From Candidatus Eiseniibacteriota bacterium (GTDB lineage Bacteria > Eisenbacteria > RBG-16-71-46): a stretch of DNA of 20,955 nucleotides. Under the pieces are notes generated by a model. The model worked only from the letters and a program-made list of their open reading frames with translations, was not told the origin of the DNA and made no database searches. The position numbers and the translations under genes are program-made. Shown piece by piece: positions 8,024-19,039 of the stretch; within the stretch, counting starts at the first letter, position 1; every line of letters begins with the position of its first letter. The stretch spans positions 1 through 20,955 of the forward strand of contig JBGAOA010000071.1 in NCBI GenBank assembly GCA_044222065.1, written 5' to 3'.

Positions 8024-8498
8024 GGCGGCCGCAGGCGCCGCGCGAAATGCTCGGACGGGCCCCTTCGAAGACACGGCGGCCCCGGCGGGCGTGCGATCGT
8101 TCTGGTCCGCGCGGAGAGGGCTGCGCACGCGGCGTCCGAGCCGCCGATCGCGACGCCCCGAGCGGGCGAAACGGGCGTTCGCGAGCCGGAGGCTCGCCCT
8201 CGGGTCCGCCGGGATGGCCTCGGCAGTCCGATCGTGCGAGCCCGAGGCGCGACGGACCGGCGCTACTCGAATGCGCTTGACGCGATATTCGCTCGCGCGT
8301 CGCGAAGGTCGCGAGGGCGCGTGCGCGTTCGCTCCACGATGCGGACGCTGCGCGGCGCGCGCATGAAAGCAACGCACGCTCGCGCGATGTCTCGACGCGC
8401 GACGATCGCGCGACTGGGCCCGCGCACGGCCCTCGAAATCGCTCGTGCTATGAAGAGCGCGCAGCCCCCGCGTGATCCGCCCCCGGCGGAGTTGCGTC

Positions 8499-9731
8499 GT
8501 GATTCGCTACTCGTTGACCCACGTCGCCGACGATTCGCTCCTGACCTCGCTGCGCACGCTCGTCACCCGCGAGCGCATGACGACGGCCGAGCTGCTCGCG
8601 CACCTCGCCGAAGTGGACGCCCGGAAGCTCTTCGTGCCGCTCGCGTGCACTTCGATGCACGCCTACTGCGTCCGCGAGCTGGGCTTCTCGGAGGATGAAG
8701 CGTTCAAGCGCATCCAGGTCGCGCGAGCGGGGCGTGAGTTCCCGCCCATCTTCGAAATGCTGGCGAACGGCGCGCTCAGCTTCACGGCCGCGCTGAAGCT
8801 GGCGCCGCATCTCACGCCTGCCAACGCCGACGAACTCCTGCGTGAGGCTTCCGGCCGCACCAAGGAAGAGATCGCGAGGCTGCTCGCGCAGCGCTTCCCG
8901 CGCCGCGACGTGCCGGCGTTCGTGAAGCCGCTCGGCGCGACGCAAAGCGGCAACGAACTGGTTCCGGAACCAGTTGATACCTCGAATCGCGTTCAAGCTC
9001 CCGGCCCCGCCGACTGCGCTGCGCCATCCCGCACGACGCCCCTCGCCCCGGAGCGCTTCGCGCTTCAAGTCACGATCTCGGGCGACACGCGGCGCAAACT
9101 CGAACGTGCGCGCGAACTCTTGAGCCACGCGATCCCCGACAAGAACGTCGCGCAGGTGCTCGATCGCGCGCTCGACGCGCTGATCGCGCAGCACGAGAAG
9201 CGGCGCTGCGCCGCGACGGAGCGCCCGGGCCGCCGCACGAGCGACGGCAAGTCGCGCGACGTGCCGGCCGAAGTGAAGCGTGCCGTGTGGGCGCGCGACG
9301 AGTCGCGTTGCACGTTCGTTGGCACGAACGGCGAGCGCTGCGACTCACGCACGCGCCTCGAACTCGATCACGTTACGCCGATCGCGAAAGGCGGCGCTTC
9401 GACCGTCGGCAATCTCCGGCTGCGCTGTCGCGCGCACAATCAGTACGAGGCCGAGCGAACTCTCGGCGAGCGCTTCATGAACACGAAGCGCGAGCGGGCC
9501 ATCGAAGCGAAGCAGAAGCGCGAAGCTCGCGAGGCACGCGAGAACGACCCCGACCAGAGCGTCATTCCGTGGCTCCGGCATCTCGGCTGCTCGCTCGAGA
9601 AGGCGCGGGCGCTGGCGGCGACGTGCGACGCGCTCGAAGGCGAGCCGGTCAAAGCGCGCCTGAAGCGCGCGCTGAGTTCGCTCGCGCCAGCCCAACCGCG
9701 AACCGCCGCAAACACGAGCGCCGCGACGTGA
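8499..9731 (+). CDS. HNH endonuclease with DUF222/13E12-like N-terminal region
   Basis: GGAG at 8488-8491 precedes GTG 8499 (alternative start 8472). N-terminus LLAHLAEVDARKLF...SMHAYCVRELGFSEDEAFKRIQVARA; HNH module RDESRCTF...RC...LELDHVTPIAKGGASTVGNLRLRCRAHN. Confidence 0.88.
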   Translation: MIRYSLTHVADDSLLTSLRTLVTRERMTTAELLAHLAEVDARKLFVPLACTSMHAYCVRELGFSEDEAFKRIQVARAGREFPPIFEMLANGALSFTAALKLAPHLTPANADELLREASGRTKEEIARLLAQRFPRRDVPAFVKPLGATQSGNELVPEPVDTSNRVQAPGPADCAAPSRTTPLAPERFALQVTISGDTRRKLERARELLSHAIPDKNVAQVLDRALDALIAQHEKRRCAATERPGRRTSDGKSRDVPAEVKRAVWARDESRCTFVGTNGERCDSRTRLELDHVTPIAKGGASTVGNLRLRCRAHNQYEAERTLGERFMNTKRERAIEAKQKREAREARENDPDQSVIPWLRHLGCSLEKARALAATCDALEGEPVKARLKRALSSLAPAQPRTAANTSAAT

Positions 9732-15008: not shown

Positions 15009-15544
15009 TACCTCGCGTCGATCTCCGACTTGATGCGCACGATCTGGCGGCGGTGGCGCTCCTCGTGCCAGCTCACGAAGTCGATCATGTCGAGGAACGG
15101 GATCGCGCCGAAGATCGGATGCGCGAGTTTCAGGCGCGACACATCGCGCGTTCGCGCGTCCTCGAGCACCGCGAGCAGCGCCGCGCGCGAGCCGTCGAGC
15201 CGCGCGAGCACGTCGGCGCGCGCCGGCGGGTCGGCGGGATCGAGCGCGTTCGCGGTGCGCACGCGCACGAGGTCGGCCACGCCGAGCTTGAAGAGCAGGC
15301 GGAACAGCGGATCGAGCGGTCCGGACTTGGCGCTCACGCCCTTCTCCATCGCGCGCCGCGATCCTGCGGCCACCGCGGCTTCCACGCGCGCGAGGTGCTC
15401 GACGGCCTGCCCTACGCACCAGCCGCGGCTCGGGCGCTTCGTCCAGCGCTCGCCGTCCACGCCCTCGATCTCGGACAGCAGCCGCCGACGCGCGGAGTCG
15501 AGCCGTGCCTCCACCTGGTCGTAGCGATCGAGGCGGACGATCAC
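15008..15544 (-). CDS. DinB/YfiT family protein
   Basis: W.KRPSRGWCVGQAVEHL, HPIFGAI, HEERHRRQI (His triad pattern); GTG start overlaps the murB stop. Confidence 0.88.
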   Translation of the reverse strand: MIVRLDRYDQVEARLDSARRRLLSEIEGVDGERWTKRPSRGWCVGQAVEHLARVEAAVAAGSRRAMEKGVSAKSGPLDPLFRLLFKLGVADLVRVRTANALDPADPPARADVLARLDGSRAALLAVLEDARTRDVSRLKLAHPIFGAIPFLDMIDFVSWHEERHRRQIVRIKSEIDAR

Positions 15545-16536
15545 GCGGCCCGCACCTCGCCCGGGATCTGCGGGCGCTTGCCCAGGAACATCACTTCCTC
15601 CTCGAGCACGACGCCGAAGCGCTCCTTCACGCGCCGCTTCATCTCGGCCGCGAGTTCAAGCACGTCGCGGGCCGTCGCGTGCCCGGCGTTGACGAGGATG
15701 TTCGCGTGCTTCGCGAACACCATGGCATCGCCGACGCGCAGGCCCCGGCACTCGCACTCGTCGAGCAGCTGGCCAGCGGCGACGCGGTGCGTGCCGGGCG
15801 AGAGCTTCGCCCCCGGCATCTGCCAGTCGGGCGGCAGGTTCTTGAAGTAGCTTCCGGCCGTGGGCTCGATGCGCCACTGCGGGTGCTTCACGCGCCGGAT
15901 CTCGAGCTTCTCGTCGATCTCCTTCTGGCTCGCGGCCAGCTCCCCCTTCGCGAGCTGCAGCAGGCACGACAGCAGCACGCGCGGTTCGCGCTTGAGCTTC
16001 GAATCGCGATAGGCGAACTCGTACCAGGGCGCTGGCTTCGTCTCGACGACGGCGCCGTCGAGCGTCGCGTGCGTGCACTCGATCACGAACGAGCCGAGGT
16101 CCTTGCCGTAGCAGCCGGCATTGCCGAACAGCGCGCCGCCGATCGAGCCCGGAATGCCGGCCGCGAACTCGAGCCCCGCGAGCCCGCGATCGCGGCACGT
16201 CAGGATGAACTCGAGGAAGTCCTTGCCGCACTCGACGTGCGCCGCGGTGCCGTCGAACTCGACCGCCTCGCACGCGTTCTTCACGACGAGCCCGCGCACG
16301 CCGTCGTCCGACACGAGCAGGTTGCTGCCGCCGCCAAGCAGGAACACGGGCAGCTCCAGCTCGTGCGCCGCCTTCAGGGCGTTCACGAGCTGCGTCGTCG
16401 TTTCGGCCGCGACGAAGTAGTCGGCGGGCCCGCCGATGCGGAACGTCGTGTGGTGGCGCAACGGCTCCGCGGTGCGGAACCCGTCGCCGACGGCATCGCG
16501 CAGGCGCTGTTCGATGGAGCGGACCGGTTTGAGCAT
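15541..16536 (-). CDS. murB: UDP-N-acetylenolpyruvoylglucosamine reductase
   Basis: HTTFRIGGPAD, LGGGSNLLVSDDG, GIPGSIGGALFGNAG, FAYRDS, PTAGSYFKN, KHAN, LEEEV; start ATG 16536. Confidence 0.96.
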   Translation of the reverse strand: MLKPVRSIEQRLRDAVGDGFRTAEPLRHHTTFRIGGPADYFVAAETTTQLVNALKAAHELELPVFLLGGGSNLLVSDDGVRGLVVKNACEAVEFDGTAAHVECGKDFLEFILTCRDRGLAGLEFAAGIPGSIGGALFGNAGCYGKDLGSFVIECTHATLDGAVVETKPAPWYEFAYRDSKLKREPRVLLSCLLQLAKGELAASQKEIDEKLEIRRVKHPQWRIEPTAGSYFKNLPPDWQMPGAKLSPGTHRVAAGQLLDECECRGLRVGDAMVFAKHANILVNAGHATARDVLELAAEMKRRVKERFGVVLEEEVMFLGKRPQIPGEVRAA

Positions 16537-16651
16537 GGCGTGCGCACGTTCGCCGATCGCGCCGCCGCCGGTCAAACCTCGCGCAGGTCCTTGCACGGTG
16601 TGCGCGCGGCGCGCGATAGTGCGCGCACACGCTTCACCCAGGGAGGCACGC

Positions 16652-16876
16652 ATGCCGAAGGTCGAGATCACCTACTGCGTTTCTTGAAACTACCTTCCCC
16701 GGGCCGTCGGTCTGGCGGCCGAGCTGAAGAAGGCGCGCGGCATCGAAGCGACGCTGATCAAGGGGCAGGGCGGGTGCTTCGAAGTGGTCGTGGACGGAGC
16801 GCTCGTGTACTCGAAGAAGGCGCTCGGACGCTTCCCCGATCCGGGCGAAGTGCTCGAGAAGATCCCGGCCTCGTAG
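16652..16876 (+). CDS. SelW/SelT/SelH (Rdx family) selenoprotein, Sec at UGA 16685-16687
   Basis: SD GGGAGG (16641-16646), ATG 16652. Reading through the TGA gives MPKVEITYCVS-U-NYLPRAVGLAAELKKARGIEATLIKGQGGCFEVVVDGALVYSKKALGRFPDPGEVLEKIPAS*, with Rdx motifs ITYCxxU, GGxFEV and SKK..GRFP. Confidence 0.93.
16702..16720 (+). promoter_or_regulatory. Bacterial SECIS element
   Basis: GGCCGUC-GGUCU-GGCGGCC stem-loop whose apical loop begins 21 nt after the UGA; the CGGUCUG apex resembles the E. coli fdhF SECIS apex CAGGUCUG. Confidence 0.8.
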
Positions 16877-16880
16877 CGGC

Positions 16881-17246
16881 TCACCCGCGAGCGGCGCCCT
16901 TCTCGAGCCGGAGCCGGTAGCGCCGCTCGCCTGTGCGCTCGAACACGAGCGCGTCCCCGACTTCGAGCCCGCGTTCGCGGCACCAGCGCATCATGCCGGG
17001 CTGCTTCGGCGAGCGCGGGCGGAAGAGCCACGTGCCGTACTGGATGTCGGTCTCGAACTCGAAGCCGAGATCGGTCTCGATCGTGACCGGCTTCACGTCG
17101 TAAGGCCGCGGCGCGTCGGCGGGTCCGCGCGGCCCGATCGCGTCGGGCGGGAAGAAGTCGAGCACGTCCCACAGCGGCACGTTCCGCTCGGTGAAGGTCC
17201 AGCGGTCGGCGTCGTTGCGGATCGGGATGCGACGCTCGTCGCTCAC
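16881..17246 (-). CDS. Hypothetical 121-aa protein, possible DNA-binding pseudobarrel (B3/EcoRII-N-like)
   Basis: GTG 17246 overlaps the upstream stop (GTGA). [11 protein letters not shown]...DFFPPDAIG...[15 protein letters not shown]...[30 protein letters not shown]; normal residue composition, unlike the upstream part of ORF 16881..18899. Confidence 0.7.
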
Positions 17247-18934
17247 CGCGCCGAGTCGCGCGCGGCCGCGAGCACGTCCTCGCCGAGCCCCGTCAGCAGC
17301 CAGCCCTTCGCCGCGAGCTCGTGCTTCCGCACGACCGCGATCACGACCGAGTCCATCGGCACCGACGGCGCGCCCGCGATCTTCGCGACCGCGTCGGCGT
17401 AAGGCGTGCCTTCGCGCGAGACGAGGATGAAGTGCTTCTCGAGCCACCGCGGGTTCGCGTGCAGCACGTAGCGGCGGCGCGTGCCGTCGGGCTCGCGCGC
17501 GTGGCGCCACAGGTCCCACAGGTCGCGCGCGGTCGTCGTGAACATGACGTCCACGCGGCTGCCGAACGTGTACACGGGATCGGTGCGGCCGTAGGTCGGC
17601 ACCCAATCGGCGCCGTACTTCGCGTTGTGCGCGTCGGTCAGGCCGAGGATGTCGCGCACGTAGAGATTCGGGCCGCCGCGGTACGGGAACTCGCCGACCA
17701 TGTTCGCGGCCACGATCGGCGGCGGCTCCATCGCCGCGAGCGTGCGGGCGACGTCGGTCTGCCACACGTCGAAGTCCGTCCCGCGCAGCGCCCGCGCGGT
17801 GAGCGGATTGCCGATCCGCGGCACGCCCTCCATGCCGCGCCACGCGCCCGCGACGAGCAGCAGTGCTGCGAGCACCGGGCCCGCGCGGCCGCCGAGTTCG
17901 AGCCCCGCCCACACGAGCATCAGCAGCACGAGCCCCCACGTCGGCACGGCGTGGCGGTTGAACGGCATCCAGTCGCCCGCGGCCCACACGCTGATTCCCA
18001 CACCGAGCCCCGCGAGCAGCAGGTACACGAGCGCCGGGGATGCGAGTCCGCGCCGGCGCACGAACTGCAGCGCGATCGCCGCGAGCGGCGGAACGAGCAG
18101 CGGGATCGCGAGCATCTCGTCGCGCGCGCCGCGCCACAGCAGCCGGATCAGCTCGCGCGGCGACTCGCGGTGGTGCAGCACCTCGCCGAGCGTGTGCGTC
18201 ATGACGGACTTGGAGCGCATCGAGGACGGCAGCCACTCGCCGAAGAACGAGTAGCGCACGAGGAACAGGATCGCGATCACGATCACCGTGAAGCCCGCGG
18301 GGCCGAAGCCCGAGCGCACGTCCCACGCGCCGCGCTGGCGCGCGACGAGGTACGTGAGCGCGAGCAGCGCGACCGCGTACACCGGGCCCTCCGCGCGCAC
18401 GATCACGAGCAGCGGCAGCCACAGCATCATGGGGCGGTACTCGCGCCGCTCGATCGCATCGAGCGCCGCGAGCGCCGCGCCCGTGAGCACGAAGCCGAAG
18501 ATCGCCGTGTCGAGTCCCGACGCGGCGTAGAAGACGACGCCGGCCGAGAGCGCCGCGCCGAGCGGCACGAGCACGTGCGCCCACACGGCGCCCGGCAGGA
18601 GCCGCCGCGCCGCGTGCCCGACCAGCACGAGCGTGCCTGCGGTGAAGAGCCCGCTCAGCGCGGGGCCCGCGAACTCGGGCGCGATGCCGATCTTCGCCGT
18701 GAGCGTGAGCAGCATCGTCCACAGCACGCTCGAGAAGCCCTCGACGCGCTCGCCCGGGTTGAACACGGGCCCGAGCCCGGCGGCCCAGTTCGCGGCGTAG
18801 CGGTAGAAGATGTACGCGTCGTCCACGCGCGCCGGCGGCTGGCCGAAGTAGTACGCGGCGAGCGCGACGAGCGCGGGCGCGTCGGTCCACGCGATCCACG
18901 CGGGACGCGGCGCCGGTGCGGCGGGTGCGGACAT
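17243..18934 (-). CDS. Membrane GT-C-type glycosyltransferase candidate (AftB/GT39-like)
   Basis: SD GAGGAG, ATG 18934; [55 protein letters not shown] and DILGLTD motifs; many TM segments. Confidence 0.78.
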
Positions 18935-19039
18935 GCGGCTCCTCACGGTCGGAGTCGTGCCCCGGGCGCGCGTGGGTCGCACACGGAGACGAAGTGGTCG
19001 CGCAGCTTCGCCGACGCGACCCCGAGCGTCAATGCGGGG

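Follow-up and report, generated by a model that had tools for sequence, protein, structure and literature searches.

Evidence for a hidden Rdx/SelW-like selenoprotein gene in an Eisenbacteria genome

Introduction

SelW-like proteins (PF10262) are listed as a prokaryotic selenoprotein family in the available parts of three papers (PMC1088965, PMC9312934, PMC13188914). In the 2005 Sargasso Sea survey, SelW-like proteins with a CxxU motif formed the most abundant selenoprotein family, with 48 genes (PMC1088965, available in part). Read-through of selW has been shown in Campylobacter jejuni by Ribo-seq and proteomics (PMC11955535, available in part). Our literature search found no paper joining Eisenbacteria with selenocysteine (Sec); the BSepDB database itself lay outside that search and may list such genes. 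The name ‘Eisenbacteria’ is absent from the BSepDB main text, from one supplement to it (about 4.0 million characters, possibly incomplete) and from the 2026 review PMC13188914.

Here we analyse a candidate of this kind from Candidatus Eiseniibacteriota, which an initial annotation had proposed to be an Rdx/SelW-like gene with a CxxU motif, cut short by standard open reading frame (ORF) calling. The window, by which we mean the whole stretch of DNA analysed (20,955 nucleotides), is contig C119 of a host assembly of 4.2 Mb in 131 contigs, with 71.8% GC and an estimated completeness of 94%.

Results

The gene and its reading frame

From the ATG at 16652 the frame reads through 11 codons ending in ITYCVS, meets a TGA, and continues with NYLPRA for a total of 62 sense codons to a TAG at 16874-16876. 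Every coordinate given for it earlier holds; those of the Shine–Dalgarno sequence and start codon are in Table 1. The standard ORF list has the same frame as 16436..16687 (83 aa), ending at the TGA, the truncation reported at 16687. By eye, similar purine-rich stretches can be seen ahead of the start codon in most of 30 orthologous loci. Neither a sigma-70 promoter consensus nor a terminator consensus was found around the gene. RNA runs X15 and X16, which come from one sample and were used as contigs only, have no bearing on its expression; X15 gave two pieces, one of 33 nt derived from another organism and one of 229 nt belonging to the downstream gene, X16 gave none, and the Rdx/SelW-like gene itself was uncovered.

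Table 1. Positions of the Rdx/SelW-like gene, its neighbours and elements, and the host Sec genes. Coordinates refer to the window unless a contig is named.
Feature	Position	Strand	Remarks
murB, divergent neighbour	15541..16536	-	Sole MurB_C match in genome
Intergenic region between the Rdx/SelW-like gene and murB	16537..16651	.	115 bp; no sigma-70 consensus
Shine–Dalgarno sequence GGAGG	16642..16646	+	5 nt ahead of ATG at 16652; read from sequence
Rdx/SelW-like gene	16652..16876	+	74 aa with TGA as U; motif C9-V-S-U12
Cys9 codon TGC	16676..16678	+	First residue of CxxU; TGC in 30/30 orthologues
In-frame TGA, inferred Sec12	16685..16687	+	30/30 loci; 135/137 phylum matches
Predicted bacterial SECIS upper hairpin	16702..16720	+	7-bp stem; loop GGUCU 16709-16713; 21 nt past UGA
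Convergent conserved hypothetical gene	16881..17246	-	121 aa; weak B3-domain match, E=0.028, below cut-off
selB	C64:20624-22552		With winged-helix domains
tRNA-Sec (selC)	C79:1319-1416		UCA anticodon; sole TCA-anticodon tRNA in genome
selD	C79, adjoining selC		Own in-frame TGA (CAG-TGA)

Family and fold

The read-through product, the only Rdx match in the host genome, scores above cut-off with three profiles: PF10262 (70.8 bits, cut-off 22.6; E=1.2e-19 over model positions 1-72 of 74), TIGR02174 (61.9, cut-off 34.2) and NF041051 (90.8, cut-off 88). The assignment to the Rdx family thus stands, but one of the sequence features cited for it does not, as Cys42 of ‘GGCFEV’ is present in one of 30 orthologues and two of 150 database homologues and is no family feature. 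A structure model, built with Cys in place of U, predicts a thioredoxin-like SelW fold (pLDDT 92.9) in which CxxU follows the first beta-strand (residues 4-9) and precedes a helix (residues 15-29). The best Foldseek matches to it are SelW-related structures (E=4.6e-9 for 2fa8; TM 0.83-0.89, rmsd 1.2-2.0 A), and mouse SelW, 2npb, is also among the matches. In 2fa8, 2oka and 2obk the residue aligned with U12 is the second Cys of CxxC, in agreement with the proposal that the TGA occupies the Cys/Sec site of Rdx homologues.

Among 150 representative homologues, the two motif positions read CC in 67, CW in 44, CS in six and otherwise in three, while 30 are unaligned over the motif, most of these beginning just past it. 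Homologue tools display U as C, and some of the 67 CC proteins may therefore contain Sec. The W residues and the shortened records are likely to be the products of mis-translated TGA codons. A word-index homologue search returned four proteins.

Conservation of the TGA

A protein search of 61 genomes (the host and 60 relatives) gave 59 matches in 51 genomes, with an internal TGA in 58 of them; in the single match row also showing a TAG, this is the normal stop of that gene. The 30 best-scoring loci, comprising the window and 29 relatives, were cut out for checking. All have C-x-x-TGA followed by a frame that runs on for 61-72 codons, and in 21 of them a second TGA is the real stop. When the Pfam model was applied to 151 genomes of the phylum, 132 genomes matched, and 135 of the 137 matches carried one TGA, the other two being a paralogue with Cys and a fragmentary match where a contig ends. 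TGC or TGT at 16685-16687 was looked for and neither was found; the contigs of X1 and X2, DNA runs that belong to separate studies, span the gene, show TGA and do not differ within it, this evidence consisting of contigs rather than raw reads, with one run possibly the source sample.

Tandem Rdx paralogues occur in one relative (L050:2630-3093, minus strand; G042:C70), one with CxxC (TGC) and one with CxxU (TGA). No Rdx match was obtained in the five genomes of family f13 (G059 and four others), although G059 has selA, selB and tRNA-Sec; a lineage-level loss of the Rdx selenoprotein in this family is possible.

A constrained hairpin downstream of the TGA

The RNA just past the UGA can be folded into a predicted SECIS-type hairpin of -12.2 kcal/mol, which fits the SECIS consensus rule of PMC13188914 (available in part). 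Our version of this rule was also passed by 128 of 150 TGA stops presumed to be ordinary, and by 81 of 150 in its strict form; because most presumed ordinary stops pass, we do not count it as independent evidence. Folding of the single sequence gave no stability above shuffles (z 0.31 to 1.08). The rule is unselective in this GC-rich genome; support for the hairpin comes from comparative conservation, which is much stronger.

Over 30 sequences, five stem pairs are kept in 30/30, one in 28/30 and the central one in 18/30, a central mismatch being tolerated in the other 12 orthologues. Compensatory swaps in the stem change G-C to C-G or A-U, and C-G to U-A. RNAalifold, run on 15 of the 30 sequences (those from plus-strand loci), found this helix and no other. 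With 15 of the 30 as input, both the cells paired and the covariation score exceeded 500/500 shuffles and all slid controls, with the caveats that related sequences can beat shuffles without structure and that the stem is partly fixed by protein conservation too; of the five pair measures, two did not stand out in this comparison (47/500 and 256/500 shuffles).

Codon usage is more telling. Codon +7 ends in C in 30/30, across four amino acids, and codon +8 is only ever AGT, GGT or AGG, with the middle-position G kept. Where the loop codon encodes Ser it is AGT in 18/18 cases, compared with 0/79 Ser codons in flanking columns, and where it encodes Gly it is GGT in 9/9, compared with 17/187 flanking Gly codons. 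Codon choice is the clearest sign of constraint on the hairpin. In the G042 pair the loop has been lost from the TGC paralogue and is retained in the tandem TGA one, this being one case. The orthologue set with its compensatory changes, together with the loop-less Cys paralogue, makes a clean natural case of a SECIS inside a coding region.

The selenocysteine machinery and the missing selA

It had been predicted that the host should be a Sec utiliser, and that selA, selB, selC and selD should be sought in its genome. The prediction is supported by the presence of selB, tRNA-Sec(UCA) and a TGA-containing selD (Table 1); of the four genes, only selA is missing from the assembly, which is 94% complete. 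No SelA match was obtained there at E<=10, tblastn with the SelA of a relative gave at best E=0.006 with 25% identity, and a search of the same assembly for SepSecS gave nothing above cut-off. A lack of selA had been named as evidence against Sec decoding, and formally this is what the assembly presents; the assembly also breaks where relatives carry selA.

SelA was matched in 36/36 family relatives. In eight of these, picked out for their long contigs, selA is directly upstream of smc in every case (seven adjacent, one with a single ORF between). In the host, contig C72 carries smc from its base 3 onward, beginning at about residue 164, and no contig of the assembly holds residues 1-163. Because all 36 family relatives match SelA and its usual neighbour is cut at a contig end, we believe that its absence is likely to reflect an assembly gap. 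A pattern scan of metagenome contigs for a bridge over the C72 gap gave 0 matches, and is uninformative because that collection may omit near-identical records.

Genomic neighbourhood

The Rdx/SelW-like gene is alone on its strand. Among 29 family relatives, murB is found within 1.5 kb upstream in 27 and the 121-aa gene within 1.5 kb downstream in 16, where it is 71-82% identical. Of 31 further loci, most of which come from beyond the family and have about 1-8 kb of flanking sequence, two have murB beside the gene, and we conclude from this that the neighbourhood points to no partner.

The murB gene at 15541-16536 is not part of any cell-wall gene cluster visible in the window. At 8472-9731 (plus strand), in the opposite direction to pyr/car genes, the window encodes a 419-aa HNH-domain protein (PF01844) whose match to the IscB model is weak and far below cut-off; an ORF resembling this gene by eye is near the Rdx gene at locus L042. 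A 579-aa membrane protein encoded at 17243-18982 (minus strand) has a weak match to NF041481, terminal arabinofuranosyltransferase (33.6 bits, cut-off 1050).

Other TGA-containing genes in the host

Statements on further genes rest on the best 120 of 248 candidates from a genome-wide, non-exhaustive TGA scan. Among them are two further thioredoxin-fold genes with a TGA at the UxxC position, C29:12243 and C54:19689. The latter (TGA on the minus strand; L092:218-1603, minus strand) encodes 461 aa with a signal-peptide-like N-terminus, a thioredoxin-like domain containing W-TGA-H-T-C, and TPR repeats. The TGA is present in 31 of 40 family matches and nine are without a stop; the gene is likely to be a further selenoprotein with Sec/Cys switching. 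The fold past its TGA fails the strict SECIS loop rule. The C29 gene (plus strand; L091:537-1391) encodes a 285-aa AhpC-TSA/Redoxin protein with A-TGA-P-F-C and a C-terminal FlgD-Ig domain, and a strong hairpin is found past its TGA. In-frame TGAs at C123:1737 (plus strand) and C26:57273 (minus strand) have coding-like sequence on both sides and no Cys motif; these may be either nonsense changes, adjacent genes or candidate Sec sites.

Discussion

Proposed decoding and function

We conclude that 16652-16876 is a real hidden selenoprotein gene of a known family, a conclusion that is well supported. Decoding of the TGA at 16685-16687 as Sec, as first proposed from the sequence, is favoured by TGA conservation, by the constrained hairpin, by selB, selC and selD in the genome and by the two further thioredoxin-fold genes with TGA at a Cys position, and we hold it to be very likely. 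The reading as a whole, in which an Rdx/SelW-like gene uses the predicted SECIS hairpin for Sec insertion and its product is a likely cytoplasmic thiol/selenol oxidoreductase, is only slightly less secure and in our view highly probable. Motif and predicted fold make a thiol-redox catalytic role for the CxxU protein a good probability.

Translation would begin at 16652. Following the established bacterial pathway, SelD would make selenophosphate and SelA, likely lost in the assembly gap, would convert Ser-tRNASec to Sec-tRNASec. SelB on the GGUCU-loop hairpin would then bring Sec-tRNA to the UGA, for which RF2 competes (PMC1794560, available in part), and because of this competition output of the protein would vary with selenium. 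In the product, Cys9 and Sec12, on the loop joining strand 1 to helix 1, would alternate between the selenolate/thiol and selenenylsulfide states; they may reduce oxidised cysteines of partner proteins and be re-reduced by the cellular thiol pool. As the protein begins directly with strand 1, it has no signal peptide and a cytoplasmic location is likely.

Alternative readings

If the TGA were a nonsense change of a Cys codon, in a pseudogene or through sequencing or assembly error, this would fit with the absence of selA from the assembly and with the fact that no transcript was seen, the X15/X16 contigs missing the gene. Such a change is hard to reconcile with a TGA in 135/137 phylum matches, with a frame conserved for 61-72 codons past it in 30/30 loci, or with the DNA contigs of X1 and X2, runs of separate studies, which show no difference within the gene; because the TGA is conserved we regard this explanation as effectively refuted, with next to no probability. 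Equally improbable is a genome-wide reassignment of TGA to Trp or Gly, giving a CxxW or CxxG motif. The W in 44/150 homologues might suggest it, but is likely to stem from automatic code-4 translation, and in a training set TGA ends 914 of 1241 long ORFs, prfB (RF2) is present, the only TCA-anticodon tRNA is tRNA-Sec, and 21/30 orthologues stop at a second TGA. With TGA as the main stop, RF2 present and these second-TGA stops, global recoding is excluded.

The searches for SelA could also mean that the gene is a real Sec gene in a species that has lost selA, so that the protein is no longer made or Sec-tRNA is formed by another route. No SepSecS was found above cut-off that could point to such a route, SelA is matched in 36/36 family relatives, residues 1-163 of the essential smc, just upstream of which selA lies in 8/8 relatives, are missing at the start of C72 as well, and selB, selC, selD and the hairpin are intact; we judge this loss very improbable. 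Its more far-reaching form, in which selB, tRNA-Sec and selD are kept along with four or more TGA-recoded genes, selA is truly lost and Sec is made by an undescribed SelA- and SepSecS-independent route, seems to us somewhat less probable again. A less improbable alternative, though still unlikely, accepts Sec insertion and differs on function: the protein would bind or pass on metal or selenium, or be tied to murB, rather than act as a general oxidoreductase. Metal binding has been predicted for some selenoprotein families and what SELENOW-like proteins do is for the most part uncharacterised (PMC13188914, available in part), and murB is close upstream in 27/29 family relatives. However, the thioredoxin-like fold and the motif argue for redox chemistry, and the link to murB looks like ordinary synteny because it recurs in only 2/31 further loci. 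We keep to a Sec-containing oxidoreductase as the preferred reading.

Implications and comparison with known systems

The gene corrects an annotation of a kind that standard callers drop or shorten, and that protein databases often carry in fragmentary form or with a W where Sec belongs. In this uncultured phylum the Sec-type Rdx gene is nearly core, being matched in 132/151 genomes.

The window gene adds a member to a known family and calls for no new mechanism. It shares with bacterial SelW (SELENOW)-like selenoproteins the N-terminal CxxU, a length of about 75-80 aa, the in-frame UGA and a coding-region SECIS, and differs in its host lineage, Eisenbacteria, and in the extra, non-conserved Cys42. 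Like C. jejuni SelW (CJnc60) it was unannotated, is of similar length (about 80 aa) and needs UGA read-through, and its product passes NF041051, a model named SelTWH_Campy; translation past the UGA is experimental in C. jejuni (PMC11955535, available in part), whereas that of the window gene is inferred. The Cys-type structures 2fa8, 2obk, 2oka, 2ojl, 2p0g and 3dex have the same fold and motif position, but carry CxxC (as the three alignments show), are about 105 rather than 74 aa long, and are 29-40% identical to the window protein. As in the E. coli fdhF SECIS, the hairpin lies within the coding region and has GGTCTG in its loop region; in contrast to fdhF, the motif is 21 rather than 18 nt past the UGA, one codon further, and the 7-bp stem is predicted to lack a bulge and tolerates a central mismatch.
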